DNA of 64,000 nt from Actinomycetota bacterium (GTDB lineage Bacteria > Actinomycetota > Acidimicrobiia > Acidimicrobiales > GCA-2861595), in the NCBI GenBank assembly GCA_052387235.1, contig JBQTJJ010000001.1, positions 7,581 through 71,580 on the forward strand. The letters are read 5' to 3'. Shown one piece after another: positions 33,537 to 57,985 of the stretch; the stretch's first letter is position 1, and the number at the start of each line of letters is the position of its first letter. The notes below the pieces were generated by a model. The model made no database searches. It was given only the letters and a program-made list of their open reading frames with translations, and was not told the DNA's origin. The translations under genes and the position numbers were made by a program.

Positions 33537-33559
33537 GGTCGGAGCCTCCCTTCCTGGGG

Positions 33560-35997: not shown

Positions 35998-36155
35998 AGG
36001 GCCCCGGGGAAGCCACCGGGGCAGCTCGCACTGCCCGTTCGGGTGACCTTCGCGGGAGGCCCGTTCGGGCCGTCCCGTGTGGAGCGCGCGTAGAGCCGTT
36101 GCGGAGGGGACCGTGCAAGAGTGCGGGCCCGGCGGGGGAAGGAGCAGGAACGAAA

Positions 36156-41013: not shown

Positions 41014-42381
41014 ATGGCCGGAGCCGGACGAGCGAGGAGGCCGGGGGGTGAGGAGGCCCGCCACCCGGAGCGCGCCGTGGCCCCGGCCCGGCCGGCGCCG
41101 GCGCCCGCCGACGACGCGGCACCGGAGCACTCCCCCCTGCTCGACCTGCAGCGCCAGGTCGGCAACGCCGGTGTGCAGGAGCTGGTCGACCTGGCCGGGT
41201 CGGAGCCGGGGCGGCCGCTCGACCCCGACGTGCGGGCCTCGATGGAGGCGTCGTTCGGCCGGTCGTTCGCCGGCGTCGAGGTCCATGAGGGACCGGCCGT
41301 CGACCGGGCCGCCGAGGGGCTCGGCGCCGCCGCCTTCGCGGCCGGGGAGGACGTCTTCCTGCGATCCGACGTCGACCCCGGGACGCCGCCGGGCCGGGAG
41401 GTGCTGGGTGAGGAGCTGGCCCACGTGGCCCAGGGGGTGGGCGCGAACCGCGCCGCCCACCTGCTGCCGCCAGAGGGCGGGGTCGAGCAGGAGGCCCACC
41501 GGGCCGCCCACGAGGCGGCCGAAGGGCGGCCCGCGGCGGTGAGCTTCGCCCCGGCCGCCGCCACCGGCGTCGGCCGCTTCCTCGACCCCATCAGCCTCGG
41601 TGTCATCGGGGGCATCGGCTACGGGGTCAAGAAGCTCTACGAGGAGCTCACCGAGGAGGAGGTGGAGGCGACCAAGCCCGACCCCGACCAGCCCACCCAG
41701 GCGACCGTCGATGCGATAAAGGGCGGTGTCCCGCCCCAGCTCGACGCCGCCGTGGCCAAGCTGGGCGGTGACCCGACCCCGGCCAACAGCAAGGCCGCCG
41801 CCGCCTCCCTCTCCTCGGTGAAGGACTTCCTGATCGGCCAGCTGCCCCCCACCAACCAGGGGCCGGTGATGTCCGTGCTGCTCACCGTGACAGGGGCCAT
41901 CAACACCCTGGAGGCGGCGGCCGACCCGACCGGTGTGCTCAAGGAGCTGCAGGGCAGCGTGGCCGCCAAGAAGGCCGAGCTGGACGGGCTCGTGGCCAGC
42001 GCCAAGGAGCCGGCCGTGGGACCGGACGGCAAGGAGCTGCCGCCGGACGCGCTCACGCCCGACCAGGCGTCGATCCTGAGCAGCGGGCCGGTGGTCTGGA
42101 TGGGCGAGGCGGCCACCATGCTGGCCGAGCCGGAGCCCGATCCCGATCTGATCGCCGGCAAGCTCGACGGGGCGGCCGGCGCCATCCGCAGCGTGAACGC
42201 GCCGCCGGCCGTCCTGCCGCAGCTGACCAAGATCGCCTTGAACTGCGGGTTGTACGCGGAGACGGCCAAGGCGACCAAGCTCACCGTGGCCGAGTCCGTC
42301 CCCCAGGCCATGGCGCAGCTCGAGGCGGCCAAGTCGATGATCGCCGAGCTGGGCGTGCCGCCCGAGATCCCGCCGGAGTGA
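41014..42381 (+). CDS. DUF4157 protein (degenerate metal motif EELAH) with helical C-terminal domain; candidate CIS cargo
   Basis: LQRQVGNAGVQELV ... MEASFGRSFAGVEVHEG ... AFAAGEDVFL ... LGEELAHVAQG. The C-terminal about 270 aa is Ala/Leu/Lys/Pro-rich and I do not recognise it. Confidence 0.75.
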   Translation: MAGAGRARRPGGEEARHPERAVAPARPAPAPADDAAPEHSPLLDLQRQVGNAGVQELVDLAGSEPGRPLDPDVRASMEASFGRSFAGVEVHEGPAVDRAAEGLGAAAFAAGEDVFLRSDVDPGTPPGREVLGEELAHVAQGVGANRAAHLLPPEGGVEQEAHRAAHEAAEGRPAAVSFAPAAATGVGRFLDPISLGVIGGIGYGVKKLYEELTEEEVEATKPDPDQPTQATVDAIKGGVPPQLDAAVAKLGGDPTPANSKAAAASLSSVKDFLIGQLPPTNQGPVMSVLLTVTGAINTLEAAADPTGVLKELQGSVAAKKAELDGLVASAKEPAVGPDGKELPPDALTPDQASILSSGPVVWMGEAATMLAEPEPDPDLIAGKLDGAAGAIRSVNAPPAVLPQLTKIALNCGLYAETAKATKLTVAESVPQAMAQLEAAKSMIAELGVPPEIPPE

Positions 42382-42506: not shown

Positions 42507-44045
42507 ATGCCTCAGTACCTTTCGCCCGGCGTCTACATCGAGGAGAAGGAGCCCGGCGCCCGACCCATCGAAGGGGTGGCGACGGCAGTGGCCGCCTTCG
42601 TCGGCGTGGCGACCCAGGGACCGTTCAACACGCCCACCCTCGTCACGAACTGGACGCAGTTCACCCAGACGTTCGGGGACTTCGCCGAGGGCTCCTACCT
42701 GGCCCACGCCGTCTACGGGTACTTCCTCAACGGCGGCGGCAGCGCCTACATCGTGCGCATCGGCGACGACGCCTCGGCCGGCGCCGCCCCGCCGGCCCGG
42801 GCCGAGCTGATGAGCGCCAGCGACACCACCATCGGCGCCTACCGGGTCAACGCCCTGGAGCCCGGAACGACGGGGAACGACATCACCGTCGAGGTGCAGG
42901 ACGCCTCGGAGCCCGGCCCCGAGACCTTCAAGCTGGTGGTGCGCAAGGGCAGCACCGAGGAGACCTTCGACAACCTCACCACCAGGCGGGGCCGGCAGAA
43001 CGCGGTCACGGTGGTGAACCAGCAGTCGCAGCTCGTCCGGCTGGAGGAGATCGGCACCGCGGCGGCGGTCGAGCGCCGGCCCGCCTCGGGCGTGGCCACC
43101 CTGGGCGGCGGCGGCGCCGTGCCCACGCCGGCCAGCATCTCGGCCGAGGACTACGTGGGCAACTCGGCCGACCGCACCGGCTTCGGTGGGCTGGAGGCCA
43201 TCGACGACGTCACCATGGTGAGCGTCCCCGACATCATCGCCGCCTACGAGCGGAACATGATCGAGCTGGAGGGCCTCCAGGCCGTGCAGCTGGCCATGAT
43301 CGCCCACTGCGAGCTGATGGGCGACCGCATGGCCATCCTCGACCCCCCGCCCGGCCTCAACGCCCAGCAGATCAAGGAGTGGCGGGTCGACAAGGCCGGC
43401 TACGACTCCAAGTACGCAGCCCTCTACTGGCCCCGGATCAGGGTCTTTGACCCCGCCTCGGGCCAGAACATCTACGTGCCGCCCAGCGGGCACATGGCCG
43501 GGATCTGGGCCCGCACCGACGGCACCCGGGGCGTCCACAAGGCCCCGGCCAACGAGGTCGTGCGGGGCGCCATCTCCCTCGAGACGAACATCACCAAGGG
43601 CGAGCACGACAGCCTGAACCCGGTGAACGTGAACTGCATCCGCGCCTTCCCGGGCCGGGGCGTGCGCGTCTGGGGGGCCCGGACCCTGTCCAGCGATCCC
43701 GGGTGGCGCTACGTCAACGTGCGCCGCCTCTTCAACTACGTGGAGAAGTCGATCCTGGGCGGGACCCAGTGGGTGGTGTTCGAGCCCAACGACAACCTGC
43801 TGTGGGGGGCGGTCAAGCGGACCATCGCCGCCTTCCTCTACCGGGTGTGGCTGGACGGCGCCCTCTTCGGCACCACGCCCGAGCAGGCCTTCTACGTGAA
43901 GTGCGACGACGAGACCAACCCCCAGGAGGTCATCGAGGCGGGGCAGGTGGTGTGCGAGATCGGCATCGCCCCCGTCAAGCCGGCCGAGTTCGTGGTGTTC
44001 CGGCTGGCCCAGCTGCCGTCCGGCACGTCGGCCCTCTCCGAGTAG
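42507..44045 (+). CDS. Contractile tail sheath protein (Afp2-4/Pvc2-4-like)
   Basis: MPQYLSPGVYIEE....RPIEGV.T..AAFVG ... NPVN.IR.FPGRG..VWGARTL is the canonical sheath N- and C-terminal signature. Confidence 0.93.
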   Translation: MPQYLSPGVYIEEKEPGARPIEGVATAVAAFVGVATQGPFNTPTLVTNWTQFTQTFGDFAEGSYLAHAVYGYFLNGGGSAYIVRIGDDASAGAAPPARAELMSASDTTIGAYRVNALEPGTTGNDITVEVQDASEPGPETFKLVVRKGSTEETFDNLTTRRGRQNAVTVVNQQSQLVRLEEIGTAAAVERRPASGVATLGGGGAVPTPASISAEDYVGNSADRTGFGGLEAIDDVTMVSVPDIIAAYERNMIELEGLQAVQLAMIAHCELMGDRMAILDPPPGLNAQQIKEWRVDKAGYDSKYAALYWPRIRVFDPASGQNIYVPPSGHMAGIWARTDGTRGVHKAPANEVVRGAISLETNITKGEHDSLNPVNVNCIRAFPGRGVRVWGARTLSSDPGWRYVNVRRLFNYVEKSILGGTQWVVFEPNDNLLWGAVKRTIAAFLYRVWLDGALFGTTPEQAFYVKCDDETNPQEVIEAGQVVCEIGIAPVKPAEFVVFRLAQLPSGTSALSE

Positions 44046-44093: not shown

Positions 44094-44537
44094 ATGCCCA
44101 TCGGCGAACACCCGATCGCGGGTTACAGCTACCACGTCGAGATCAGCGGCGTCACCATGGCCCAGTTCAAGTCGGCCGAGGGCCTCGGCATCAAGATCGG
44201 CGTCATCGAGCACCGGGAGAACAAGCTGACCGGCCTGCCCGTGCTGAAGAAGCTGCCCGGCCACGTCCAGTACAGCGACATCACCCTCAAGCGGGGCAAG
44301 GTCAACGACAAGGTCTTCTGGGACTGGATCAAGCAGGTGGCCGACGGCGACATCGACGGGGCCCGCAAGGAGGGCTCGGTGGTGCTGTTCGACTACGCCC
44401 ACGGCGAGGTGGGGCGCTTCGACTTCGAGGGCGCCTGGCCCAGCGACGTGAACGTGGGCGCCCTGGACGCGGCGGGCGACGAGGTCCTGCTCGAGAGCCT
44501 CACCATCACCATCGAGAAGCTCAACGTCCCGGCCTAG
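44094..44537 (+). CDS. Tail tube protein (T4 gp19-like, Afp1-like)
   Basis: Y.V.I.G...A.F....GL...I.V.E.RE ... G.V.Y.DITLKRG...D..FWDW pattern. RBS AAAGGAG. Confidence 0.9.
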   Translation: MPIGEHPIAGYSYHVEISGVTMAQFKSAEGLGIKIGVIEHRENKLTGLPVLKKLPGHVQYSDITLKRGKVNDKVFWDWIKQVADGDIDGARKEGSVVLFDYAHGEVGRFDFEGAWPSDVNVGALDAAGDEVLLESLTITIEKLNVPA

Positions 44538-45117: not shown

Positions 45118-47616
45118 ATGCGCCGGCCCTTCCGGCGGGAGCGCACCGAGCCCGCACCGGCGCCGGCGCCGGCCGCCGCCCCGCCGCCCGCGCCCCCGGC
45201 CTCACCGGACCGGGGCGCCCGCCACGGCCCGTGGGACGAGCTGCCCCGCCTGCGGGCCACGGCCGAGCAGCTGGAGACGACCGCGGCGACAGCGGCGTTC
45301 CTTTCCGAGCTGATCACCCGCCAGCCGGCGCCGGTGGCCCTGCAGCCCCTCAGCCACGACGTCTCGCTCAGCGCGCCGGCCGGCATCGTGCTCGGCATCG
45401 CCACCACCGTGGAGCGGCGGGGGCCGGACGCGGAGCTGCCCCTCGCCCCTCCCCCACCGCCCGCCGGTGCCCCGGCGGGCCGGTCCACACCGGTCCCGGC
45501 GGCCAGGCGGCCGGCGAGCGACGGACCGGCGGTGCGGGCCAGCGGCGACCGCCGACGGGCCCCGGACCAGGGCCGAATCCGGCCCCTCCCCACCGTGGCG
45601 GCCCCGACCCGGGCCGGGCCGGCGAGGGCTCCCGCTCCGCCTCCTGACACCGCCATCGGCTCGGCCCCGGCCGGCGAGGCGGGCGGCGAGGGCACGGGGG
45701 CGGCGACGCTGGGCCGGGCCGGGCGCGCCGCGCCGGTGCCGGCCCGCGCCCCCGGCGACGACCCCGCCGCCCCGCCGGCCGGGCCCGAGCCCACTGCCAC
45801 CGCGCCCGACCTGGTGCTGCCCCCCGTGACCGGCACGACTCGGCCCCCGCCCGGCCACGACCGGACCGCCCCCGCGGGCGCGGCCGCCGCCTCGCCGACC
45901 GGGCTCGACCCCGCCTCGCCGGCCGGGCCCGACCCTGCCCCGCCGGCCGAGCCGGTCCCGGGGCCGGATCCTGCCCCGCCGGCCGAGCCGGGCCCGCGGC
46001 CGGCACCAGCGCTCCGCGAGCCGGCCCCCGTCTCGGTGGACCGGCCCCGCCCGCCGGCCGTCCCGGCGCCGGCCAAGCCCGACCGGCCGCCGCAGCTGCG
46101 GGCTCCCACCCTGGGGCGCCGAGCCGAGGCCCGGCCCCGCATCGGGCCCCCGATGGCGTCGCCGGCCGGCGGCGCCCAGCGGGCCCCCAAGAAGGTGGGC
46201 GGCACGGCCACCGGAGGCAGCTCGCCCGCCCCGGCCACCGGGCCGGTGGCCAAATCGACCGGCGGCGGCGGGCCCGGCGGCGGGGAACCGATGCTGCCGC
46301 CGTCGACCCTCCCCGTGCTCAACCCCGGTGGCGACCTCACGGGCGGGGGTGGATCCGGTGCCGGCCCGGGCGGCGAGACGACCGTGTCCGGCGGCGGGAG
46401 CTTCGGGGGCTCCCTCACCGTGGGCGGCGAGGTCACGGCCGGCGGCGGCCTGACGGCCGGGGGCGGCCTGTCGGCGGGCGGCGAGGGTGTGGTCGGCGGA
46501 GGGGCCACCGTGGGAGGCGGCGTGCTGGCCGGGGGCGACGTCACGGCCGGCGGAGCCGGCACCTTCGGGGGGGCGGCCACGGTGGGCGGCGACCTCTCGG
46601 TGGGCGGGGCCGCATCAGTGGGTGGGGCGGCCGCCGTGGGCGGGGAGATCACGGCCGGCGGGGCCGCCACCGTGGGTGGCTCGGCCACGGTGGGGGCCAA
46701 CCTGTCGGTCGGGTCCACCGTCAGCGCCGGCGCCGGCATGTCGGCGCCCACGCTGGCCGTGGGCAGCCTGATCGCCGGCTCGGTGACGGCCGGGTCGGTG
46801 GAGGCGGCCACCATCAGCGGGGGGGGTGGTGGGGGCGCCGGCGGTGGGGCGGCCCGGGCGCCCGACGCCACCGCGCCCCTGGTGAGCCGGCGCCCGCCCC
46901 TCACCGAGCGGGCCCACCGGCCGGAGGACCTGCCCGACGACGTGCGCCGGGACGTGGAAGCGGCGGCCGGCGTCCCCCTGGCCGGCGTGATGGTGCACCG
47001 GGGCGCGGGCGTCGGCATCGAGGCGGGCCGGCGGGAGGCACGGGCCTTCACCGCCGGCGGCGAGGTGTACCTGCCCAGCGAGCACGGCCCCCTCGACCAG
47101 GAGCCGGCCCGGTCACTGCTGGCCCACGAGCTGGTCCACGTCGGCCAGCAGCGCCGCCTCGGCCGGGCCCTCCCCCACGAGGCCACCACGGAGGGCCGCC
47201 AGCTGGAGGCCGGCGCGGCCGACGTGGAGCACCGGGTCTCCACCCTCCCCACCCGGGCCCACCACCCGCCCGGCGACCGCCCGGCCGCGGCCGCCGTCCG
47301 GGCCGGCGTGGCCAGCGAGGCCGGCGACGGCACGGTCCTGTTCTCCCCCCCGCCCGGCGAGGGGCCGGCCGCGACCGGCGCCGCCTCCGTCCCCGTGGCG
47401 CGCCCGGGACCGCAGCGGGCCGCCGGCGACGCCTCCGACACCGGCGCCAGCGCCCCCGCCGCCACCGGCGAGACCACCGGCCCGGCGCCGGCCGGCGCCG
47501 GCGACGAGGACGTCGAGGAGGTCGTCGACAAGCTCTACCGCCCCATCCTCGACCGCCTCCGCCGCGACCTGCTGATCGAGCGGGAGCGGGCCGGGCTCCT
47601 GCTGGACCGGAGGTAG
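45118..47616 (+). CDS. Tape-measure-position protein: Pro/Ala-rich region + Gly-rich repeats + embedded DUF4157 + conserved C-terminal helix
   Basis: Located between tube/chaperone and tube-initiator genes. DUF4157 block DVRRDVEAAAGVPLAGVMVHRG ... FTAGGEVYLP ... LLAHELVHVGQQ at about 46920-47155. C-terminus DKLYRPILDRLRRDLLIERERAGLLLDRR. Confidence 0.75.
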   Translation: MRRPFRRERTEPAPAPAPAAAPPPAPPASPDRGARHGPWDELPRLRATAEQLETTAATAAFLSELITRQPAPVALQPLSHDVSLSAPAGIVLGIATTVERRGPDAELPLAPPPPPAGAPAGRSTPVPAARRPASDGPAVRASGDRRRAPDQGRIRPLPTVAAPTRAGPARAPAPPPDTAIGSAPAGEAGGEGTGAATLGRAGRAAPVPARAPGDDPAAPPAGPEPTATAPDLVLPPVTGTTRPPPGHDRTAPAGAAAASPTGLDPASPAGPDPAPPAEPVPGPDPAPPAEPGPRPAPALREPAPVSVDRPRPPAVPAPAKPDRPPQLRAPTLGRRAEARPRIGPPMASPAGGAQRAPKKVGGTATGGSSPAPATGPVAKSTGGGGPGGGEPMLPPSTLPVLNPGGDLTGGGGSGAGPGGETTVSGGGSFGGSLTVGGEVTAGGGLTAGGGLSAGGEGVVGGGATVGGGVLAGGDVTAGGAGTFGGAATVGGDLSVGGAASVGGAAAVGGEITAGGAATVGGSATVGANLSVGSTVSAGAGMSAPTLAVGSLIAGSVTAGSVEAATISGGGGGGAGGGAARAPDATAPLVSRRPPLTERAHRPEDLPDDVRRDVEAAAGVPLAGVMVHRGAGVGIEAGRREARAFTAGGEVYLPSEHGPLDQEPARSLLAHELVHVGQQRRLGRALPHEATTEGRQLEAGAADVEHRVSTLPTRAHHPPGDRPAAAAVRAGVASEAGDGTVLFSPPPGEGPAATGAASVPVARPGPQRAAGDASDTGASAPAATGETTGPAPAGAGDEDVEEVVDKLYRPILDRLRRDLLIERERAGLLLDRR
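46381..46850 (+). repeat. In-frame Gly-rich short-period repeats (about 20 units of V/T-G-G-x-x-T/S)
   Basis: SLTVGGEVTAGGGLTAGGGLSAGGEGVVGGGATVGGGVLAGGDVTAGGAGTFGGAATVGGDLSVGGAASVGGAAAVGGEITAGGAATVGGSATVGANLSVGSTVSAG... Confidence 0.85.
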
Positions 47617-47620: not shown

Positions 47621-48055
47621 GTGGCGGCGTCGAAGGACCCGGGCCTGGCCATCCGCTACGAGGTGAAGGTCGACGGCGTGGACCTGGGCGCCTTCACCGA
47701 GTGCGACGGGCTGGCCGGCGAGTACGAGGTCCTCGAGTACCCGGAGGGCGGCAACAACGGCTTCGTCCACCGCCTCCCGGGCCGCCTCAAGCACACCAAC
47801 GTCACGCTGAAGCGGCCCATCGACGCCGAGTCCGGGAAGCTGGCCGCCTGGTTCAGCAGCCTCAAGGACGCGGTGAGCCGCAAGACGGCCTCGATCACCG
47901 TCTACGACGGCAACAAGAAGAAGATCGCGGGCTGGAGCCTGGTGGGGGTCTGGCCGGCCAGGTACAGCGGCCCGAAGCTGTCGTCCACCGACGAGGGCGT
48001 GGCCATCGAGACCCTGGAGCTGGTCCACGACGGCTTCACCCACGAGGGCGGCTGA
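47621..48055 (+). CDS. Second gp19-like tube-family protein (Afp5-like tube initiator)
   Basis: RYEVKVDGVDLGAFTECDGL..EYEV.EY.EGG ... LKHTNVTLKRP is paralogous to 44094-44537. GTG after GGGAGG. Confidence 0.88.
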   Translation: MAASKDPGLAIRYEVKVDGVDLGAFTECDGLAGEYEVLEYPEGGNNGFVHRLPGRLKHTNVTLKRPIDAESGKLAAWFSSLKDAVSRKTASITVYDGNKKKIAGWSLVGVWPARYSGPKLSSTDEGVAIETLELVHDGFTHEGG

Positions 48056-48058: not shown

Positions 48059-48721
48059 GTGCCCGCCCTCGACAAGGCCTACCTGGCGGTGCAGGGATCG
48101 GGCGACCGGCTCGAGTTCGCCTTCAACCCCACCGAGGTCGACCTGGCCAAGTCCTCGCAGTGGAAGGACTCCAAGAACAAGGGCGCCAAGAAGGCGCCAC
48201 CCAAGGAGTTCATCGGCACCAACGCCCGCACGCTGGCCATGGAGCTGCTGTTCGACGGGTGGAACGACGGGAGCGGCGACGTGTCGGCCGCGGTGGAGAA
48301 GCTGTTCACCTGGACCTGCCCCACCGAGGAGTCGCTCAGCAACAACAAGCCGCAGCCGCCCGTGGTGGTCCTGCACTGGGGCGCGACCTCCTACTTCGAG
48401 GTCTACGTCAAGCAGGTCCAGGCCAAGTACACGCTGTTCGACCAGCAGGGCCACCCGGTGCGGGCCACCGTCAAGGTGACCCTGGAGGAGCTGCCCCAGA
48501 ACCCGGCCGCCCAGAACCCGTCCTCGGGCGGCGTACCCGGCCGGCGCACGTACCAGATGACGGCCGGCGACACCCTGCAGTCGGTGGCCTACCGCGAGTA
48601 CCGCCGGCCCCAGTACTGGCGGGCCCTGGCCGAGGTCAACGGCATCGACGACCCGATCCGGGTGCGGCCCGGGACCCAGCTGCTCGTCCCGCCCGCCACC
48701 GAAGCGGCCCGGCTGTCGTAG
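48059..48721 (+). CDS. LysM-domain baseplate/tube-initiator protein (Afp7-like)
   Basis: The N-terminal tube-like half (LEFAFNPTEVDLAKSSQW) and the C-terminal LysM (YQMTAGDTLQSVAYREY..PQYWRALAEVNGIDDP.RVRPGTQLLVP). Confidence 0.85.
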   Translation: MPALDKAYLAVQGSGDRLEFAFNPTEVDLAKSSQWKDSKNKGAKKAPPKEFIGTNARTLAMELLFDGWNDGSGDVSAAVEKLFTWTCPTEESLSNNKPQPPVVVLHWGATSYFEVYVKQVQAKYTLFDQQGHPVRATVKVTLEELPQNPAAQNPSSGGVPGRRTYQMTAGDTLQSVAYREYRRPQYWRALAEVNGIDDPIRVRPGTQLLVPPATEAARLS

Positions 48722-48731: not shown

Positions 48732-50465
48732 GTGCCCGACACCCAGCAGTTCGGAGCCAAGCCGGTGATCGAGATCGACGGCAGCCCCCTGCCATCGAGC
48801 GTGGAGCCGGCCCTGGAGGAGGTGGTGGTGGACGACCACCTCCACCTGCCCGACATGTTCCTGCTGCGGCTGCGCGACGACGGCAAGGACGTGTTCCGGC
48901 AGCTGGCGGTGCGCATCGGCAGCAGGGTCACCATCTCGGCCACCCCCGTCGGCGACGGGCGCCAGGACCCGCTCATCGTGGGCGAGGTCACCGCCCTGGA
49001 GGCCGAGTACGACAAGACCGGGACCCACGCACTGGTACGCGGCTACGACCTGTCCCACCGGCTGTGCCGGGGCCGCAGGACCCAGACCTTCAACGACGTC
49101 ACCGACTCCGACCTGGCCGCCCAGATCGCCGAGGGGGCCGGCCTCGACCTGGGCCACGTCGACGCCACCTCCACCACCTACGAGCACGTGTCCCAGGTGA
49201 ACGTCAACGACTGGGAGTTCCTCAAGGCCCGGGCCCGGGAGATCGGCTACGAGGTTGCGGTGGTGCTGGGCAAGTTCGAGTGGCGGCGCCCCGCCGAGTC
49301 GTCGGCCGGCCCGGGCGAGTCGGGCGTGGAGCCGGGAGAGCCCACCCAGCTGGTGCTGGGCTCCAACCTCGAGTGGTTCCGGCCCCGGGTGACGGCCGGC
49401 GAGCAGGTGAAGGAGGCCCAGGTGCGGGGGTGGGACCCCACCACCAAGCAGAAGGTGGTGGCCACTGCCGCGGCCGCCACGACCAGCGCGTCGGTGGGCC
49501 TGGGGCCGGCCGAGCTGGCCGGCACCTTCGGCAACCCCACCTACGTGTGCGTCGACCTGCCCCTGGCCACCCAGGCCGAGGCCGACGCCGCCGCCGCCGC
49601 CCTCATCGAGCAGATCGGCAGCGTCCACTGCGAGGCCGACGGCGTCGCCCAGGGCAACCCGAAGCTCCGGGCCGGCACGGCCGTGAGCGTGTCGCTGGCG
49701 GGCTGGCCCTACGACGGCCGCTACACCATCACGTCCTCCCGCCACTGCTACAGCCCCGGCGGGTACCGGTCGCACTTCCAGGTGAGCGGGCGCAACGAGC
49801 GCTCCCTGCTGGGCCTGGCCTCCATGGGCGCCACCAAGGGCAACGGCAGCGCGGGCGGGCCGCCCATGTACGGCGTGGTGATCGCCCAGGTCACCGACCT
49901 CGACGACCCCGAGGAGCTGGGCCGGGTCAAGCTGGCCATGCCCTGGCTGTCGGACACGTACGAGTCCTGGTGGGCCCGCGTGGTGCAGCTCGGGGCCGGC
50001 GACCAGCGGGGGGCGGTCTGGCTCCCGGAGGTGGACGACGAGGTGCTCGTGGCCTTCGAGCACGGCGACGTGCGCCGGCCCTACGTCATCGGCAGCCTGT
50101 GGAACGGCGTGGACAGGCCGAACCTGGGCTCGCGCCTGTTCGACCACGGCGCCGTGAAGCGGCGTGGCTTCGTGTCCAAGAAGGGCCACCGCCTGGTGTT
50201 CTTCGACGACGACGGCAAGTCGGGAGTGGCCACCATCACGGCTGACGACGGACTGCGCATCTCGCTCAACCAGACCGAGACGACGATCAAGGTGACCAGC
50301 TCGGGCAAGGTCGAGATCCAGGGCACGGGCGAGGTCTCCATCACGTCCAGCAGCAACGTCACGGTGGAGGCCACCGGCAAGCTCGACCTCAAGGGGTCGG
50401 CCGGCGTCAGCATCGACGGCGGCCCCCAGGTGGCCATCACCGGCGGGGTGGTGAAGCTCAATTGA
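48732..50465 (+). CDS. Spike/baseplate hub protein (gpD + gp5-OB + beta-helix; VgrG/Afp8-like)
   Basis: gpD-like N-terminus. VVIAQVTDLDDPEELGRVKL..PWL ... WARVVQ ... GAVWLPEVDDEVLVAFEHGD.RRPYVIGSLWN. Ends in beta-helical repeats. Confidence 0.9.
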   Translation: MPDTQQFGAKPVIEIDGSPLPSSVEPALEEVVVDDHLHLPDMFLLRLRDDGKDVFRQLAVRIGSRVTISATPVGDGRQDPLIVGEVTALEAEYDKTGTHALVRGYDLSHRLCRGRRTQTFNDVTDSDLAAQIAEGAGLDLGHVDATSTTYEHVSQVNVNDWEFLKARAREIGYEVAVVLGKFEWRRPAESSAGPGESGVEPGEPTQLVLGSNLEWFRPRVTAGEQVKEAQVRGWDPTTKQKVVATAAAATTSASVGLGPAELAGTFGNPTYVCVDLPLATQAEADAAAAALIEQIGSVHCEADGVAQGNPKLRAGTAVSVSLAGWPYDGRYTITSSRHCYSPGGYRSHFQVSGRNERSLLGLASMGATKGNGSAGGPPMYGVVIAQVTDLDDPEELGRVKLAMPWLSDTYESWWARVVQLGAGDQRGAVWLPEVDDEVLVAFEHGDVRRPYVIGSLWNGVDRPNLGSRLFDHGAVKRRGFVSKKGHRLVFFDDDGKSGVATITADDGLRISLNQTETTIKVTSSGKVEIQGTGEVSITSSSNVTVEATGKLDLKGSAGVSIDGGPQVAITGGVVKLN

Positions 50466-50538
50466 CGGCGGCGGATGGGGCTGGGGCCCCCATCTCGGCG
50501 AGGAGGCTGGGGTTGGGGCCCCAGCCGGGGAGAGAACA

Positions 50539-50931
50539 TTGAGTAGTGAGTTCATTGGCGCGGGGTGGGCCTATCCCGTTCGCACGGACGCGACCGGGGG
50601 CATCGCCCTGGTGTCGGGGGACCGGGAACTGGCCGAGAGCATCCGGCTCATCCTGGGCACGGCCTACGGCGACCGGCCCATGCGGCCCGAGTTCGGCTGC
50701 GCCATCCACGACTTCGTGTTCTCCCCCGCCGACACCGGGATGGCCGGCCTCATCGCCTACGAGGTCCAGGCCTCGCTGGCCCGCTGGGAGCCCCGCATCG
50801 TGGTGCAGGGGGTGGACGTGAGCTTCGACCCGGACCGGCCCGTCGTCTACATCGACCTGCGCTACTCCACCAGCGACGCCAACGACCCCCGCAACCTCGT
50901 CTTCCCCTTCTACTACCTGCCGGAGGAGTGA
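50539..50931 (+). CDS. Baseplate wedge protein gp25/GPW-like (Afp9-like)
   Basis: GAGWAYPV ... ESIRLILGTAYGDRPMRPEFGC.IHDFVF is the GPW_gp25 signature. TTG start after GGGGAGAG. Confidence 0.88.
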   Translation: MSSEFIGAGWAYPVRTDATGGIALVSGDRELAESIRLILGTAYGDRPMRPEFGCAIHDFVFSPADTGMAGLIAYEVQASLARWEPRIVVQGVDVSFDPDRPVVYIDLRYSTSDANDPRNLVFPFYYLPEE

Positions 50932-50932: not shown

Positions 50933-52873
50933 ATGGCGCTCCCCGCCCCCAACCTCGACGACCGCCGCTTCCAGGACCTCGTCGACGACTGCAAGCGGCT
51001 GGTGCAGCAGCGGTGCCCCGAGTGGACCGACCACAACGTCCACGACCCCGGGGTCACGCTTCTCGAGACCTTCGCCTGGCTGGCCGACCAGCTCCTCTAC
51101 CGGCTCAACCGGGTGCCGGACAAGAACTACGTGAAGTTCCTGGAGCTGGTGGGCGTGCGCCTGTTCCCGCCCAACGCGGCCCGGGCCGGCGTCACCTTCT
51201 GGCTGTCGGCGCCGCGGCCCGACACCGTCCGCATCCCGTCGGGCACGCGGGTGGCCACGCCCCGCGCCGGCTCCGAGGAGCTGGTGGCCTTCACGACCCT
51301 GGACGACGTCGACGTCGTCCCCTGCCGGGTCGCCCACGTCCTGTCCACCGTGGCCGAGGGGGCCTACCGCCACCACGACGACGCCCTCGGGCTGGAGCAG
51401 GAGTTCGCCTGCTTCGACCAGGTCCCCAAACCCGGCGACAGCCTGCTGGTCGGCCTGGACGACGCCGTCCCGTCCTGCGCCGTGGTGGTGCGCTTCGACG
51501 CGCGCATCGAAGGCATAGGCGTCGACCCCGACCGGCCGCCGCTGGCGTGGGAGGCGTGGGACGGCGAGGGCTGGGCCGCCTGCCAGCTGGACACCGACAC
51601 CACCGGCGGCATCAACCGGGCCGGCGACGTCGTGCTCCACGTGCCGCCCAGCCACACCACGGCCATCGTCGACCGGCTCCGGGCCGGGTGGCTGCGGGCC
51701 CGGGTGCTGGAGGCAGAGGACGACCAGCCCGCCTACAGCGCCTCGCCGTCGGTGCAGCGCCTGTCGGCGTTCACCATCGGAGCCACCACGCCGGCTGTCA
51801 ACGCCGAGGTGGTGGAGGACGAGGTGCTCGGGTTCTCCGACGGCACGCCCGGGCAGTGCTTCCGGGTGAGCCGGCTGCCCATCGTCCCGGTGGGCGACCC
51901 CGTGGTGGTCGAGGTGGCGGGCGACGACTGGGAGCCGTGGGAGGAGGTCGAGGACTGGGCGTCGAGCGGGCCCGACGACGCCCGCTTCGTGGTCGACCGT
52001 GTCAGCGGTGAGGTGCGCTTCGGCCCGGCCGTGCGCCAGCCCGACGGCACCGTGACCTCCTACGGCCGGGTCCCGCCCAAGGGCGCGGCCGTGCGCATCC
52101 GCTCCTACCGCACCGGCGGAGGCCAGCGGGGCAACGTGGCCCGGCGCAGCCTCACCGTGCTCAAGTCCTCGATCCCGTTCGTGGCGCGCGTCGAGAACCG
52201 GTCCGCGGCCTCGGGCGGCCGGGACGGCGAGACGGTGGGGAACGCCAAGGAGCGGGGGCCCATCACCCTTCGGTCGAGGGGCCGGGCCGTCACGGCCGAG
52301 GACTTCGAGTCCATCGCCGGCCAGGCCGCGCTGGAGGTTGCCCGGACCCGCTGCACGCCGGTCACCGACGGCGACGGCGGGAGCGGCGTGCGCGTGCTGA
52401 TCGTCCCCCACGCCACCGACGACCGGGGCCGCCTCTCGTTCGGTCAGATGGTGCCGGCCGACGAGACCTACCAGAAGGTGGCCGCCGCCCTGGACGAGCG
52501 CCGCATCGTGGGCACGCGGGTGGTGGTGGAGCCGCCCGAGTACATGGGCGTCACCGTGGTGGCCCGCCTGCGGCCCCACCCGTCGGCCAACCAGGCCCGC
52601 CTCCGCGAGGCCGCCCTGGAGGCGCTGTTCGGCTACTTCCACCCGCTGCGGGGCGGACCCGACGGGGATGGTTGGCCGTTCGGCCGGCCCGTCCACGTGG
52701 GCGAGGTCTACGCCGTGCTCCAGGGCCTGCCCGGGCTCGGCATCATCGAGGACGCCCGCCTGTTCACCGCCAACCCGGCCACCATCGAGCGGGGCCGCGA
52801 CGCCGTGCCGCGCATCGACCTGGAGCCCAACCAGCTCGTCTTCTCCGTGGACCACCAGGTGGTCCTCCGGTGA
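50933..52873 (+). CDS. Baseplate J-like protein (gp6-like, Afp11-like)
   Basis: LPAPNLDDRRFQDLVDD....Q.RCPEWTDHNVHDPGVTLLE.FAW..D.L.YRLN..P is the typical N-terminus of the putative baseplate assembly protein family. 646 aa. Confidence 0.88.
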   Translation: MALPAPNLDDRRFQDLVDDCKRLVQQRCPEWTDHNVHDPGVTLLETFAWLADQLLYRLNRVPDKNYVKFLELVGVRLFPPNAARAGVTFWLSAPRPDTVRIPSGTRVATPRAGSEELVAFTTLDDVDVVPCRVAHVLSTVAEGAYRHHDDALGLEQEFACFDQVPKPGDSLLVGLDDAVPSCAVVVRFDARIEGIGVDPDRPPLAWEAWDGEGWAACQLDTDTTGGINRAGDVVLHVPPSHTTAIVDRLRAGWLRARVLEAEDDQPAYSASPSVQRLSAFTIGATTPAVNAEVVEDEVLGFSDGTPGQCFRVSRLPIVPVGDPVVVEVAGDDWEPWEEVEDWASSGPDDARFVVDRVSGEVRFGPAVRQPDGTVTSYGRVPPKGAAVRIRSYRTGGGQRGNVARRSLTVLKSSIPFVARVENRSAASGGRDGETVGNAKERGPITLRSRGRAVTAEDFESIAGQAALEVARTRCTPVTDGDGGSGVRVLIVPHATDDRGRLSFGQMVPADETYQKVAAALDERRIVGTRVVVEPPEYMGVTVVARLRPHPSANQARLREAALEALFGYFHPLRGGPDGDGWPFGRPVHVGEVYAVLQGLPGLGIIEDARLFTANPATIERGRDAVPRIDLEPNQLVFSVDHQVVLR

Positions 52874-52925
52874 CGGCCGGGGTGGGTACGATCGTGGCCG
52901 CGGCGGCCGGGAGGGGGTCGATGGC

Positions 52926-53468
52926 GTGCGAGGGCTGATCGAGGGCCTGGCCAGCCCCCACCCGCTCGAACCCATGCTGCCCCCCATGTTGCGGGGCGAG
53001 GACTTCCTGGAGCGCTTCACCGGTGCCCTCGACGATGTGCTGGCACCGGCCTTGTGCGCCCTCGACAACCTGCCCGCCTACCTCGACCCGGTGCTGGCGC
53101 CGCCCGACTTCCTGGCCTGGCTCGGCAGCTGGTTGGGGATGGACCTCGACGACGACTGGCCGCTCGACCGGCGCCGCACCATGGTCGCCCACGCCGCCGG
53201 TCTGTACGAGCGGCGCGGGACGGTGTCCGGACTGGCCGACCTGGTGGCCCTGTACACGGGGGCGGGGCCGGAGATCGTGGAGGGCGGCGGGGTCTCGTGG
53301 TCGGCCACACCGGGCGGCAGCCTCCCGGGCACGGGGTCCCCGCTCGTCCTGGTACGGGCCCGCTTCGCGGGCGACCCGCCAACCGACACCGACCTGGCCC
53401 GTATCGACGGGCTGGTGGCGGCGGCCAAGCCGGCCCATCTCCAGCACACCGTGGAGGTCCTGCCGTGA
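52926..53468 (+). CDS. Phage tail protein I-like baseplate protein (P2 gpI/Afp12-like)
   Basis: LPPMLRGEDFLERF...LD.VLAP....LDNL.AYLDP..AP.DFL.WL..WLG..LD..W ... YE.RGT..GL pattern. GTG 52926 after GGGAGGGGG. The longer listed ORF overlaps the previous gene. Confidence 0.8.
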   Translation: MRGLIEGLASPHPLEPMLPPMLRGEDFLERFTGALDDVLAPALCALDNLPAYLDPVLAPPDFLAWLGSWLGMDLDDDWPLDRRRTMVAHAAGLYERRGTVSGLADLVALYTGAGPEIVEGGGVSWSATPGGSLPGTGSPLVLVRARFAGDPPTDTDLARIDGLVAAAKPAHLQHTVEVLP

Positions 53469-53487
53469 ACGAGAGGGCTGGCGGCCG

Positions 53488-55092
53488 GTGATCATCTGCG
53501 AGGAGTGCGGCAACCAGAACGACTCCACCGACACCTTCTGCGGGTCGTGCGGCGCCTTCCTGGAATGGCAGGGCCAGCGAGTCGAGGAGCCGGCCCCGGA
53601 ACCGGAGCCCGAGGTGGAGGAGACGGCCGAGGAAGCGGCCCGGCCGGGGATCGTGCAGCGGGTCAAGACGGCCATCGGCATCGAGGACCAGCCCGGCGGG
53701 GGCGGTGGGCCCGCCGCAGCCGGTGGGGCCGGGCCCGGCACCGACGAGGCGGTCGAAGCCGAAGAGGCCCGCCGGCTGGCCGCGGCCGAGCGGGCCGGCG
53801 CGGAGGAGGCCGCCGAGCGGGCCCGGCGGGAGGCGGCAGAGGCCCGGGCCGAGGCGGAGCGGGCCGAGCGACTGGCCCGGGAGCAGGCCGAGGCCGCGGC
53901 CCGGGCCCAGCGCGAGGCGGAGGCCCGGGCCCAGCGCGAGCACGCGGCCGGGGCCCAGGCCGAGACCGAGGCGGCCCGCCGGGAGGCGGAGGCGGAGGCG
54001 GCCCGCCGGGAGGCCGAGGCGGAGGCGGAGGCGGCCCGCCGGCGGGCCGAGGAGGTGGCCGGCTCCACCGCCGCGGCCGAGGCGGCTGCGGAGCGGGCCA
54101 GGGCCGAGGAGGCCAGGCGGGAGGAGGCGGCCCGCCGGGCCGCGGCCATGGTGGCCCAGCCCAGACAGGCGCCCACTCCCCCGTCTCCACCGGCGCCGGC
54201 GGCGGTACGGCCGACCGAGCAGCGCCAGCGGCCCGCCCCCCGCCAGCCGGCCGCCCCCGCCCCGGTGGTCAAGCCGGGCGACCTCATCTGCGGGCAGTGC
54301 GGCGAGGGCAACGACCCGGCCCGGAACTTCTGCCGGCGCTGCGGCCACACCCTGGCCACCGCCCTGGTGGCCAGGGTGCCGTGGTACCGCCGCGTGTTCT
54401 CGCGCCGGAAGAAGGCGGTCCCTGCCGGCGCCCGTCCCGGCCGGGCCGGAGGCGCGGTCGCCGCAACGACCGGCGGGCGGGGCCGCCGCGGTGCCGTCCG
54501 CGACGCCAAGATGGCCGGGCGCAAGGCCAAGTCGGTCTACAACAAGTTTCGCAGGGTGGCCGCCCTGCTGGTGATCCTCGGCGTGGGCCTGGCCTTCCTC
54601 GGTCCCTTCCGGGAGCCGGCCAACCGCGCCTACCAGTCGGTCCGGCGGGTCATCAAGCCCGAGTTCGAACCGGTGCGCCCCGTCGCCGCCGTCGCCTCCA
54701 GCTCAGCCCCGGGCCGTGATCCCACCGCCGTCATCGACGGCATCAAGAACACCTTCTGGGCCGAGGGCGCCCCCGGTCCCGGCGACAGGCAGACCCTCAC
54801 CGTCACCTTCTCGGAGCCCACCGACCTCGACAAGTTCGGGATCATCCCGGGGGCGTCGGAGAACCCGGCCCAGTTCGTGGCCCAGCCCCGGCCCCGGACC
54901 CTGCATCTCGTGTTCGACGGCACCACTCCGAGTGCCAAGGACGTCGCGGTCAAGGACTCGGCCAAATTCCAGTCCTTCGACCTGAAGGCCAAGGGCGTCA
55001 CCAGCGTGCTGGTGGAGATCGTGTCGGTCCACGCCAGCACGGGCGGCGAGGACTGCGCCATCACGGAGCTGGAGTTCTTCCGGAAGAAGTGA
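53488..55092 (+). CDS. Zinc-ribbon x2 / Glu-Ala-Arg coiled coil / TM / discoidin-like (glycan-binding type) protein
   Basis: ICEECGNQNDSTDTFCGSCGAFL and ICGQCGEGNDPARNFCRRCGHTL ribbons. TM helix VAALLVILGVGLAFLGPF. C-terminal DGIKNTFWAEG ... ITELEFF resembles F5/8-type-C/NADase-type glycan-binding domains. GTG 53488 is 20 nt after the gpI-like gene. Confidence 0.75.
   Translation: MIICEECGNQNDSTDTFCGSCGAFLEWQGQRVEEPAPEPEPEVEETAEEAARPGIVQRVKTAIGIEDQPGGGGGPAAAGGAGPGTDEAVEAEEARRLAAAERAGAEEAAERARREAAEARAEAERAERLAREQAEAAARAQREAEARAQREHAAGAQAETEAARREAEAEAARREAEAEAEAARRRAEEVAGSTAAAEAAAERARAEEARREEAARRAAAMVAQPRQAPTPPSPPAPAAVRPTEQRQRPAPRQPAAPAPVVKPGDLICGQCGEGNDPARNFCRRCGHTLATALVARVPWYRRVFSRRKKAVPAGARPGRAGGAVAATTGGRGRRGAVRDAKMAGRKAKSVYNKFRRVAALLVILGVGLAFLGPFREPANRAYQSVRRVIKPEFEPVRPVAAVASSSAPGRDPTAVIDGIKNTFWAEGAPGPGDRQTLTVTFSEPTDLDKFGIIPGASENPAQFVAQPRPRTLHLVFDGTTPSAKDVAVKDSAKFQSFDLKAKGVTSVLVEIVSVHASTGGEDCAITELEFFRKK
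53741..54150 (+). repeat. In-frame Glu/Ala/Arg-rich imperfect tandem repeats (coiled-coil coding)
   Basis: ARAQREAEARAQRE and EAARREAEAEAARREAEAEAEAARRRAE units are visible in both the DNA and the protein. Confidence 0.8.
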
Positions 55093-57985
55093 CCGGCTCG
55101 GGCCCCAGCCCCAGCTCGGACAGCGCCTCGTCGTACCCCTTCCGAGCCTTGGTCGCGGCCGCCCGCTCGCCGGCCGCCTCATGGGCCGCGACCAGCAGGC
55201 GCCACAGCCCGTCCCGGTAGCGGTCGATCTGCAGGCCCCGCTCGGCGGCACCGGCCGCGGCCGACGGCCGGCCCAGCGCCAGCTCGGCCTCGGCCAGCGC
55301 GTGGGCGGCATCGACCGCCGCGGCGCCGAGCTGCTCGCGCCGCTTGACCACCCATTCCGCCGGCCCGTCCTCGGGGAGCAGGTCGCCGCGATAGCGGTTG
55401 AGAGCGGCGTGGAAGGCGACCGCGGCATGGGCCGGGTCGCCGGCCCGGAAGGCGGCCCTTCCGTCCTCGACGGCCCGTTCGAAGCCGACCACGTCCACGT
55501 CGGCGCCGGCCGGGAGCTCCAGCCGGTAGGCGTCGCCGTCCCGAACCACGTAGGCGCCGGGCCCGTTTCCGGGGTCCGGCCGGAGCACCTGGCGGAGGGT
55601 GGACACGGCCACCTGGAGCTGGTGGGCGGCGGCGTGGGGGTCGACATCGGGCCAGAAGGCGTCCAGGAGGTGCTCGCGGTGCACGCTGCGGCCGGCCGAC
55701 ACGGCCAGCAGCCGGAGCACGGCGCGGGCGCGGGGGCGGATGCCGCCCAGCTCGACGGCCCGGCCCCGCACCGACACCCGGAAGCCGCCGAAGCAGAGCA
55801 GCTCCACCGGCGGCGGGCCGCCCGCCTCCGGGCCGGCGCCGGTCGGGTGGTGCACCAGGGCCACGGCGGCCAGGCCGCACTCCTCGGCCAGGGTGCGGCC
55901 CAGGGCGGCGTGCTCGGTGGCCCGCTCCCCGCCCATGGCCCCGAGCAGGGCGTGGGCCACCGCCTGTGGGCCCCGAACGCCGGTCGAACGGGCCAGGGCC
56001 TCGGCGTCGAGGGCGGCTCGACGGGCCTCGGTCGAGCCCGACCGCGCGAGGGCGACGGCCAGCAGTGACCGGCACCACGCCTCCAGCACGCTGGAGCCGA
56101 GGCGGCGGAAGCGCCCCGCGGCGTCGTCCAGCAGGGCCAGCGGTGCCCCTCCCCGGGCCAGGAGGCCGAGCGACTCCATCAGCGCGGACAGGCCGGCGCC
56201 CCAGTCGTCGCCGGCCTCCTCGCACGCGACCCGGATGGCCGCCGCCTCGTCCACGCCGGACGGCCTCGGCGTGAGGGCAAGGGCCGCCCTGGCCAGGGCG
56301 GCCAGCCAGGGCAGGCCGCGGCGCTCGGCATAGACGGCGGCCCCCTCGACCTCATCCGGAGCGCCTCCGCCGGGGGTGAGCAGGAGGGCCACCGCAGCCG
56401 CCACCCGGGCCCCCGCCACCACGGCCGGCGAGGCGAACGGGTCGTCGGCGGCCCGGACGAGGTGGTCCCGACCCGGCACTGGGTGCCCGTAGAGCAGGGC
56501 GGCCACCCCGGCCACCAGCTGCCCGGACGGGCCCGGCAGCTCCAGTGCCCTGGTCCAGGCCGCCCTGGGGTCGCGCCGCACCCCGGCCAGGGCCACGCCG
56601 GTCCAGCCGGGCGGCGCCACGGCCGACGGGTCGAACCACGGGGCCACCAGGCGGCGCTCCCGCCGGCAGGCGTCACGGGCGGTGGCCGAACCGGAGGTGG
56701 CGTCGGCCCGCTGGTAGGCGTCCAGGGCCTGGTGCCACTGGCCCTGGGCCAGATGGCGCCGGGCCCGGGCCACCAGCAGCCAGGCTTCGCCGGCCACGAG
56801 GGAGACGGGGAGGGTCTCCACCCAGGCGCACGGGTCGTCCACCAGCTGCTCCCCGTCCCGCCCGAGCAGCCGGGCCGCGGCGGCCCAGTCCTCGGCCCGG
56901 CAGTAGGCGTAGAGCGCCTCGCTCAGGGCGCCGTCTGCCTCCAGGAGGCGGGCTCCCCGCTGGTAGTGGGCCCGGGCCGCCTCCTCGCCCCGCTCCTCGA
57001 ACAGTGCCGTGTCGAGGTGGGAGCGCAGGACTTCGTGATAGCGGTACGAGGTGTCGTCGACGGCGGACGTGAAGATCTGGCGCCGCTCCAGCTCGGCCAG
57101 GACCGCCTCGCTCCCCTGCCGGCCCAGCAGCTCGTCGCACACTGGGCCCCGGAGCCGGCCGAGCACGCACGTGCCGATCAGGAAGGAGCGCAGCTCGTCG
57201 GGGAGCTCGTCCAGAACGTTGCGGGCCAGGTACTCGCGCACGAGGCGGGACCGGCTGCCGAGCGATGACAGGATCCGGCGGCGCTCGGCCGGTGACTTTC
57301 CCGATGTGGCCAGGTGGAACATCTGCAGCCCGGCCGCCCACCCCTCGGTGCGGCGGGCCAGATCGGCCAGCTCGCCGGGCGGGAGCGGGGCGGCATAGAG
57401 GTCGCGGAACAGGGCCTCGGCCTCCCAGGACCGGAAGCGGAGGTCGTCGGGACCGAGCTCGAGCAGGTGGCCGGACACCCGCAGCCGGGACAGGTTGAAC
57501 CCAGGGAGGTGACGCGTCGCGGCCAGGACGGCGGCGTTGGGAGGGAGGTAGTCGATGAGACGCTCGAAGGCGCGCTCGGCCTCCGTGCCCGCCAGGACGT
57601 GGAGGTCGTCGATGGCGAGGAGCACCCGCTGCTCCCACGCCTCCAGGCTCGCGGCCACATCGCCCACGCCGTTCCAGGGCCCGCTCGCGGCGGGCGCGGG
57701 CGCGGGAATGGCGCCGGCCAGGGCCCGTTCCAGGTGGGCCGCCAACGCAGCCTCGCTGCTGTCGCTGGCCTCGGCCCGGTACCAGCCCACCGCACAGTCG
57801 GCCCCCCGGGCGAACTGAGCCAGGAGGGTGGTCTTGCCCGAGCCGGCCGGCGCCACGACCAGGGCCAGGCGCCGGGCCCAGAGGCCGGCCAGGACAGTGT
57901 CGAGACGCTGGCGGGGGATCGCGGCGCAACCGGGGACTCGCGTCTTGGCGGCCAGCACGGCGGGCCGCTCGTCTTCCCCCAGCAT
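55061..57985 (-). CDS. STAND-type ATPase + TPR-like region + C-terminal SARP (OmpR-wHTH + BTAD) regulator
   Basis: N-terminal Walker A VVAPAGSGKTTLL and LLAIDDLH (MalT/LuxR-large-ATPase-like). C-terminal LLCFGGFRVSVRGR ... YRLELPAGADVDVVGFE ... YRGDLLPED ... (BTAD). The 3' end overlaps the convergent CIS gene by 32 nt. Confidence 0.8.
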   Translation of the reverse strand: MLGEDERPAVLAAKTRVPGCAAIPRQRLDTVLAGLWARRLALVVAPAGSGKTTLLAQFARGADCAVGWYRAEASDSSEAALAAHLERALAGAIPAPAPAASGPWNGVGDVAASLEAWEQRVLLAIDDLHVLAGTEAERAFERLIDYLPPNAAVLAATRHLPGFNLSRLRVSGHLLELGPDDLRFRSWEAEALFRDLYAAPLPPGELADLARRTEGWAAGLQMFHLATSGKSPAERRRILSSLGSRSRLVREYLARNVLDELPDELRSFLIGTCVLGRLRGPVCDELLGRQGSEAVLAELERRQIFTSAVDDTSYRYHEVLRSHLDTALFEERGEEAARAHYQRGARLLEADGALSEALYAYCRAEDWAAAARLLGRDGEQLVDDPCAWVETLPVSLVAGEAWLLVARARRHLAQGQWHQALDAYQRADATSGSATARDACRRERRLVAPWFDPSAVAPPGWTGVALAGVRRDPRAAWTRALELPGPSGQLVAGVAALLYGHPVPGRDHLVRAADDPFASPAVVAGARVAAAVALLLTPGGGAPDEVEGAAVYAERRGLPWLAALARAALALTPRPSGVDEAAAIRVACEEAGDDWGAGLSALMESLGLLARGGAPLALLDDAAGRFRRLGSSVLEAWCRSLLAVALARSGSTEARRAALDAEALARSTGVRGPQAVAHALLGAMGGERATEHAALGRTLAEECGLAAVALVHHPTGAGPEAGGPPPVELLCFGGFRVSVRGRAVELGGIRPRARAVLRLLAVSAGRSVHREHLLDAFWPDVDPHAAAHQLQVAVSTLRQVLRPDPGNGPGAYVVRDGDAYRLELPAGADVDVVGFERAVEDGRAAFRAGDPAHAAVAFHAALNRYRGDLLPEDGPAEWVVKRREQLGAAAVDAAHALAEAELALGRPSAAAGAAERGLQIDRYRDGLWRLLVAAHEAAGERAAATKARKGYDEALSELGLGPEPVTSSGRTPAP

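Follow-up and report, generated by a model that had tools for sequence, protein, structure and literature searches.

The terminal gene of the baseplate operon in a 64,000-nucleotide stretch of contig JBQTJJ010000001.1 (the window, that is, the whole stretch of DNA analyzed here), which comes from an uncultured member of the Acidimicrobiales and carries a complete contractile injection system (CIS) locus on the plus strand, is by sequence comparison a divergent member of the CisA family, homologous to Streptomyces CisA over the whole conserved core. The gene at 53488-55092 can be named cisA-like; for this window alone, the outcome is an annotation. Its product most probably serves a cytoplasmic (type IId-like) CIS as membrane adaptor and trigger. 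The kind of protein is known and experimentally characterized, and the proposal of an earlier note on this DNA, namely an inside-out analogue of a receptor-binding fibre that tethers or triggers the CIS at the membrane, reproduces the model published for the CisA family between 2023 and 2025. Specific to the present case are the low identity to Streptomyces CisA (~25-31%), the uncultured host, a long charged helix and the extension of the family, with its two ribbons retained, to Acidimicrobiia, Nitriliruptoria and Dormibacterota/Chloroflexota.

The Streptomyces coelicolor protein Sco4242 was described by Vladimirov et al. (2023, PMC10020575) as encoded where fibres lie and was termed a 'putative fiber'; its peptides were found by mass spectrometry in all three particle purifications. 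The same work noted, in front of a strong transmembrane (TM) helix, a Cys-rich and probably zinc-binding domain that could link the protein to the baseplate, together with a C-terminal domain of carbohydrate type of ~150 residues. Casu et al. (2023, PMC10066040) proposed Sco4242 as a membrane adaptor and reported its homologues to be absent from CIS-negative Streptomyces. The protein was then named CisA by Casu et al. (2025, eLife, PMC12237407), who found it to be bitopic with an N-in/C-out topology (PhoA/LacZ) and to fractionate with membranes. In ΔcisA S. coelicolor, CIS are still made and stay extended even in dying hyphae, and the mutant differs in stress-induced death, in the timing of sporulation and in its production of actinorhodin (PMC12237407). 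Besides CisA, no factor is known so far that couples free-floating cytoplasmic CIS to the membrane and permits firing.

Homology with CisA and conservation of the gene order

A tblastn search against plasmids led to CIS loci on pSCL4 of S. clavuligerus and pSCATT of S. cattleya. The corresponding proteins, of 584 residues in S. clavuligerus and 320 residues in S. cattleya (SCATT_p13520), give BLASTP E-values of 1e-13 and 2e-13, respectively, with the window protein, and both lengths agree with the entries of these species in the table of reciprocal CisA hits of Casu et al. Alignment with hhalign of the window-family profile and 14 CisA homologues from Streptomycetaceae and Pseudonocardiaceae yielded a probability of 100% and an E-value of 2.7e-43 over 226 columns, spanning the second zinc ribbon to the C-terminus. 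SCO4242 itself was compared over residues 1-310, taken from the AlphaFold 3 model file of the eLife supplement, and its C-terminal domain was compared via the S. clavuligerus and S. cattleya homologues. Over residues 1-310 the window-family profile matches SCO4242 with a probability of 98.5% (E 3.6e-15); C268, C271, C282 and C285 of the window protein together with its PWYRR and AGARP motifs align to SCO4242 residues 222-278. The same SCO4242 fragment against the Streptomycetaceae profile gave an E-value of 3.7e-25. The landmarks of SCO4242 are ribbons at C6/C9/C20/C23 and C223/C226/C237/C240, PWWRR at 256-260, AGDRP at 272-276 and a TM helix at 285-305.

CisA and the window protein thus share the order of their elements (N-terminal ribbon, variable linker, second ribbon, PW(W/Y)RR, AGxRP, TM helix and a NADase_discoid domain of ~150-160 residues) as well as the placement of the gene after cis11 and cis12. 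They differ in the linker, which is a 137-residue Ala/Glu/Arg helix here and a Pro/Ala-rich disordered segment in Streptomycetaceae CisA, and in the host, an uncultured high-GC bacterium as opposed to S. coelicolor. The neighbouring baseplate genes keep the order of the Streptomycetaceae loci, at 30-64% identity, the cisA-like gene being the most diverged of the block.

As the earlier note had stated, the gene closes the baseplate operon and directly follows the gpI-like (Tail_P2_I) gene. This order is conserved. Within the window it stands immediately after the equivalents of Cis11 (Baseplate_J) and Cis12 (gpI), and 19 nucleotides separate the gpI-like stop codon (53466-53468) from its GTG codon. 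This start at 53488 is supported because the family-wide N-terminus M-I-x-C-x-x-C-G, conserved in 33 homologues, begins there. In all of six homologue contigs (36-76% identity, including Nitriliruptor alkaliphilus and 'Chloroflexi' metagenome-assembled genomes, MAGs) the gene comes directly after Tail_P2_I and closes the same order of genes. Four of these contigs have a 4-nucleotide overlap between the gpI stop codon and the cisA-like start codon, which indicates that the two genes are co-translated within a single operon. A scan for sigma-70 promoters and intrinsic terminators over 52600-55400 returned 0 sites against ~0 expected and is uninformative at the 76% GC of this region.

More than 200 relatives were obtained from the searches, and 211 were examined for their architecture. 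Almost all follow one plan, in which a ribbon at residue 4 is joined by a linker of variable length to another ribbon, and a TM helix precedes ~160 C-terminal residues; 186 of the 211 have both ribbons, and 208 contain a hydrophobic segment scoring above 1.6. Using the second-ribbon motif as a pattern, we also scanned 185,579 GTDB genomes, one per species, and recovered 332 relatives, the closest of which (from an Acidimicrobiales MAG) is only 45% identical. The best 80 of the 332 come from Acidimicrobiia, Pseudonocardiaceae (many of them Amycolatopsis) and Chloroflexi/Dormibacterota MAGs. Upstream sequence sufficed for a check of synteny in 62 GTDB loci; in 58 of them Baseplate_J precedes the gene in the same orientation, and in 55 gpI lies upstream, so that the synteny with CIS loci expected from the earlier note holds in both sets of relatives. 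The position after the wedge genes is kept in Actinomycetota as well as in Chloroflexota/Dormibacterota MAGs.

Some members deserve separate mention. Four proteins from Acidimicrobiaceae MAGs (loci L010, L011, L012 and L018) carry a zinc ribbon and NADase_transloc and are orphan or paralogous copies; the neighbours of the L011 gene (~5056-6804) are FG-GAP and amine oxidase genes. Locus L029 (5737-6780), titled Streptomyces sp. MN03-5084-2B, was dropped as a Streptomyces representative, since its protein hardly differs from the one of Amycolatopsis sp. MtRt-6 (P0144) in the stretch inspected by eye. The first ribbon of the L029 protein is degenerate (C-x-H ... CxxC), and the record may be misnamed or contaminated.

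Architecture of the cisA-like protein

The protein is built from two zinc ribbons joined by a long linker, a basic juxtamembrane region, a TM helix and an external domain (Table 1). The two CxxC...CxxC ribbons, the Pro-rich spacer (33% Pro over residues 226-258) and the single TM helix (V357-F374, Kyte-Doolittle maximum 2.09) had all been recognized in the earlier note and are borne out by the present analysis. Two of its descriptions stand in part. The long Glu/Ala/Arg segment exists, modelled as a 137-residue helix, but it lacks the composition and heptad pattern of the coiled coil that had been assumed; the C-terminal domain is indeed of the discoidin/NADase type, according to PF25302, NF047619 and the predicted fold, but it is shorter than the ~190 residues given for it, with 160 residues after the TM helix and ~140 in the sandwich.

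Both ribbons are of the form CxxC-x10-CxxC (C4/7/18/21 and C268/271/282/285). Residues 4-25 match Pfam Zn_Ribbon_1 and DZR above the cut-offs and are modelled with a predicted local distance difference test (pLDDT) score of 87-90; this ribbon is invariant in 33 relatives and also occurs in the 14 CisA homologues from Streptomycetaceae and Pseudonocardiaceae. The second ribbon, which matches Zn_ribbon_15 and DZR_2 at residues 261-292 under the Pfam cut-offs, shows the strongest conservation of any motif in the family and aligns to SCO4242 C223-C240. PWYRR and AGxRP, which follow it, are conserved in the window-family alignment. Lys and Arg residues number 11 in the 30 residues before the TM segment versus 5 after it, and by the positive-inside rule this bias predicts a cytoplasmic N-terminus (N-in).

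The segment between the ribbons departs most from its Streptomyces counterpart. Residues 91-225 are composed of 42% Ala, 24% Glu and 20% Arg, with 4% bulky hydrophobic residues, and hydrophobic residues occupy at most 7% of the a/d positions in all seven registers. A canonical coiled coil was rejected on this composition and on the missing heptad register. Opposite charges spaced i/i+4 occur 26 times versus 13.4 +/- 2.9 in shuffled sequences, none of the 2000 shuffles reaching 26, and in composition and model the segment looks like a charged single alpha-helix (SAH) spacer. Such spacers, of the ER/K type, are known from myosin VI and X and from caldesmon; they share with the window helix the high charge, the few hydrophobic residues, the i/i+4 enrichment of opposite charges and the modelling as one long helix. 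The window helix differs from them in being unusually rich in Ala, and its monomeric state is a prediction, oligomeric packing being possible. At the DNA level the helix consists of imperfect in-frame tandem repeats with periods of 24, 27, 33 and 48 nucleotides, and AARREAEAEA is present twice, at residues 162 and 171. An Ala/Glu/Arg-type spacer is found in 83 of 186 window-type relatives versus 0 of 109 Streptomycetaceae-type proteins. Across the relatives the inter-ribbon linker ranges from 55 to 494 residues; together with the in-frame repeats, this suggests that the linker has evolved through the gain and loss of repeat units.

The C-terminal domain matches Pfam PF25302 (NADase_transloc) with 35.8 bits for a cut-off of 27 and NCBIfam NF047619 (NADase_discoid) with 84.4 bits for a cut-off of 38; the latter signature is common to the window protein and its S. 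clavuligerus and S. cattleya homologues, the three proteins tested. The F5/8-type-C family PF00754 remained below its threshold (25.5 versus 28.2 bits), with a match limited to residues 401-464. AlphaFold models the domain as a galactose-binding-like β-sandwich (pLDDT above 90, and 88-98 over the extracytoplasmic part) resembling carbohydrate-binding module family 32 (CBM32) and F5/8C domains. The best Foldseek matches are the CBM32 modules 7blg (TM-score 0.81) and 2v72 (0.77), within a CBM32 range of 0.71-0.81, and APC10/Doc1 (1jhj, 0.68). All of these share the same β-sandwich fold with the window domain at 10-22% identity, and the APC10-type members differ in that they bind protein and not sugar. 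By sequence, the closest solved structure in a PDB search is 7ji1_A, the translocation domain of the S. pyogenes NAD+ glycohydrolase (NADase), with an E-value of 1.2e-20. The kinship with this domain (7JI1) shows in PF25302 and NF047619, both above cut-off. Unlike the streptococcal NADase, the window protein has no NADase catalytic domain, and its β-sandwich is predicted to be tethered outside the producer's own membrane, whereas that of the NADase rides on a secreted toxin.

The window protein and the several hundred relatives recovered with it show what is conserved across phyla, namely both ribbons, PW(W/Y)RR, AGxRP, the TM helix and NADase_discoid, and that the linker, here a long charged helix, is free to vary. 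Mutagenesis and the prediction of complexes can be directed at these parts.

Table 1. Coordinates in the window of the cisA-like gene, the parts of its product and the surrounding genes (pLDDT values from the AlphaFold model; aa, amino acids; ORF, open reading frame)
Feature	Position	Strand	Details
cisA-like gene	53488-55092	+	534 aa; GTG start; stop codon 55090-55092; from ORF and translation
Shine-Dalgarno-like GAGAGGG	53471-53477	+	10 nt upstream of the GTG, within the 19-nt gap; sequence reading
N-terminal zinc ribbon, aa 1-28	53488-53571	+	C4, C7, C18, C21; motif CxxCG-x9-FCxxCGxFLxW
Acidic, Pro-/Gly-rich disordered linker, aa 29-85	53572-53742	+	composition; pLDDT 37-59
Ala/Glu/Arg-rich continuous helix, aa 86-222	53743-54153	+	137 residues; pLDDT 84-97; ~20 nm if straight
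Pro-rich spacer, aa 223-258	54154-54261	+	33% Pro (residues 226-258); pLDDT <50
Second zinc ribbon, aa 259-292	54262-54363	+	PGDLICGQCGEGNDPARNFCRRCG; C268, C271, C282, C285
Basic juxtamembrane region, aa 293-356	54364-54555	+	motifs PWYRR and AGxRP; 31% Lys/Arg (residues 296-350)
Single TM helix, aa 357-374	54556-54609	+	VAALLVILGVGLAFLGPF; V357-F374; Kyte-Doolittle maximum 2.09; helix in model
Extracytoplasmic part, aa 375-534	54610-55089	+	160 residues; stalk helix 375-389, then β-sandwich ~392-534 (~140 aa)
eCIS_core/DUF4157 proteins (three)	37635-40964, 41014-42381, 45118-47616	+	Pfam
Sheath gene	42507-44045	+	
Tube proteins	44094-44537 and 47621-48055	+	
CIS_tube/LysM	48059-48721	+	
VgrG-like spike	48732-50465	+	
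gp25	50539-50931	+	
Baseplate_J gene (Cis11 equivalent)	50933-52873	+	Pfam PF04865; 52-55% identity to Streptomycetaceae Cis11
gpI-like baseplate wedge gene (Tail_P2_I; Cis12 equivalent)	52668-53468	+	Pfam PF09684, E 1.3e-12
AAA/winged-helix/BTAD (SARP-type) regulator gene	55061-57985	-	974 aa; Pfam BTAD, Trans_reg_C, AAA_16; convergent

Proposed function and alternative explanations

In the role of membrane adaptor and trigger, the cytoplasmic zinc ribbons would contact the baseplate wedge, the partner in the prediction for S. coelicolor being Cis11. The ribbons are likely to form this contact because they are the sole strongly conserved cytoplasmic elements, their conservation extending well past the zinc ligands. 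The charged helix and the disordered linkers could allow the N-terminal ribbon to make this contact tens of nanometres away from the membrane. On the other side, the CBM32/NADase-translocation-like domain would bind or sense a component of the cell envelope, probably a glycan. Envelope stress would in this manner be coupled to the recruitment of free-floating CIS to the membrane and then to their contraction.

Several observations weigh against this assignment. CisA is absent from the 3.5 Å cryo-electron microscopy (cryoEM) structure of the particle and baseplate, and Cis11 (Baseplate_J) was singled out as its partner by AlphaFold-Multimer, that is, by prediction only (PMC12237407). The C-terminal domain of CisA has been described as solute-binding-like (Casu et al., 2025, PMC12237407), and the fold modelled here also serves protein recognition in APC10/Doc1, which heads the Foldseek list. 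The identity to Streptomycetaceae CisA is low, and the direct comparison with SCO4242 covers residues 1-310, in front of its C-terminal domain (310-468). The host is uncultured, and the cytoplasmic siting of its CIS is putative. Lastly, there are no CIS genes within 6 kb of the four Acidimicrobiaceae relatives mentioned above, and the family is therefore not strictly CIS-bound.

These four relatives, which share the zinc ribbon and the NADase_transloc domain and lie among unrelated genes (including FG-GAP and amine oxidase genes), are also what would favour a cell-wall-associated membrane protein that is independent of the CIS and hitch-hikes beside its loci. We regard this as very improbable, the least credited of the alternatives considered, given that the adjacency to baseplate genes is retained between classes and even phyla and includes cases in which stop and start codons overlap, that homologues of Sco4242 were reported absent from CIS-negative Streptomyces (PMC10066040) and that CisA is genetically required in S. 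coelicolor (PMC12237407). A particle-bound fibre or receptor-binding protein, which after lysis or extrusion would bind glycans on the surface of a neighbour or target cell, corresponds to the reading of Vladimirov et al. and fits the position of the gene, which is that of the fibre gene in phages and extracellular contractile injection systems (eCIS), the recovery of Sco4242 peptides in all three purified particle samples (PMC10020575) and the CBM fold of the C-terminal domain with its relation to the cell-binding domain of the streptococcal NADase. It is nevertheless unlikely, since it conflicts with the strong predicted TM helix and its positive-inside bias, with the experimental N-in/C-out topology of CisA and with the 3.5 Å baseplate map, which contains no fibre density (PMC12237407), and since neither the Pfam scan nor the model contains a trimeric fibre, β-helix or collagen-like domain. 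Membership among tail fibres was accordingly rejected: the protein matches no Pfam fibre family, its model comprises ribbons, one helix, a TM helix and a β-sandwich, and CisA is missing from the cryoEM baseplate. What the window protein has in common with phage and eCIS tail fibres such as Afp13 is the location of the gene right after the wedge genes and a presumed coupling of membrane or surface contact to firing; it differs from them in being, by prediction, anchored in the membrane of the producer and in lacking a fibre fold, and CisA is not a stable particle component.

A further alternative is that of an envelope-stress sensor acting through gene regulation, anti-sigma-like or one-component-like, which would signal to the adjacent BTAD/AAA regulator. 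In zinc anti-sigma factors, too, one TM helix connects a zinc-binding N-terminus in the cytoplasm with a sensor outside, a resemblance that we counted in favour of this explanation. A BTAD regulator gene is moreover convergent to the cisA-like gene in 5 of the 6 homologue contigs, in four as the immediate neighbour and in L007 with one gene in between, and lies downstream, convergent every time, in 19 of 69 GTDB loci; the S. clavuligerus locus also contains one in the same relative orientation. This linkage (19/69) is, however, far weaker than that to the baseplate (58/62), the anti-sigma families give no Pfam or NCBIfam match in the protein, and ΔcisA particles are still made and fail only to contract (PMC12237407). 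In our estimate the regulatory sensor is a little less probable than the particle-bound fibre, itself unlikely.

The membrane adaptor and trigger therefore remains the preferred assignment, and it has parallels in other CIS held at membranes, namely the trans-envelope complex of the type VI secretion system (T6SS) and the baseplate extension of the cyanobacterial thylakoid-bound contractile injection system (tCIS) (reviewed in PMC12237407). In each case a contractile machine is held at the producer's membrane before firing. The T6SS and tCIS anchors are unrelated proteins and stable, whereas the contact of the CisA type appears transient and conditional.

The occurrence of CisA-type genes outside Streptomyces suggests a CisA mechanism that is not confined to that genus. 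As a speculation that we hold to be rather doubtful, the rigid, repeat-encoded helix of ~20 nm that replaces the Pro-rich linker could be a molecular ruler or lever, which would set the distance from the membrane at which the baseplate is captured or relay a signal from the external domain. In the same speculative reading, the presence of CisA-type genes at CIS loci of Acidimicrobiia, Nitriliruptoria and Dormibacterota/Chloroflexota would make membrane-triggered, self-directed CIS firing a widespread trait well outside the filamentous Streptomyces.

The surrounding CIS locus

The window has a GC content of ~74%. The gpI-like protein is 44-51% identical to its Streptomycetaceae and Nitriliruptor counterparts. 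Its homologues measure 179-256 residues; the listed ORF runs into the preceding gene, and the true start is probably near 52870-52930. At the other end of the cisA-like gene, the 3' end of the regulator gene shares 32 nucleotides (55061-55092) with the cisA-like 3' end, and this BTAD regulator may be a dedicated regulator of the CIS locus. Two of the three eCIS_core (DUF4157) proteins are encoded upstream of the sheath gene, and roles as cargo, as tape-measure-like proteins or in assembly are possible for them.

The gap of 73 nucleotides between the VgrG-like and gp25 genes (50466-50538) contains no ORF of PAAR length. Genes with a PAAR motif were seen in related loci, in L007 at 12803-13288 on the minus strand, where the gene sits just after the cisA-like gene, in L003 at 6413-6799 and in L004 (Nitriliruptor alkaliphilus) at 6728-7030. 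Upstream of the CIS genes, a 409-residue ORF with a bacterial Ig-like (Big_6) domain is located at 33560-34789 on the minus strand, and the nearby minus-strand ORFs 31317-33041, 33079-33603 and 34895-36169 have no Pfam match. The sole RNA gene found in the window by tRNA and Rfam scans is a tRNA-Val (GAC) at 5006-5081 on the minus strand.

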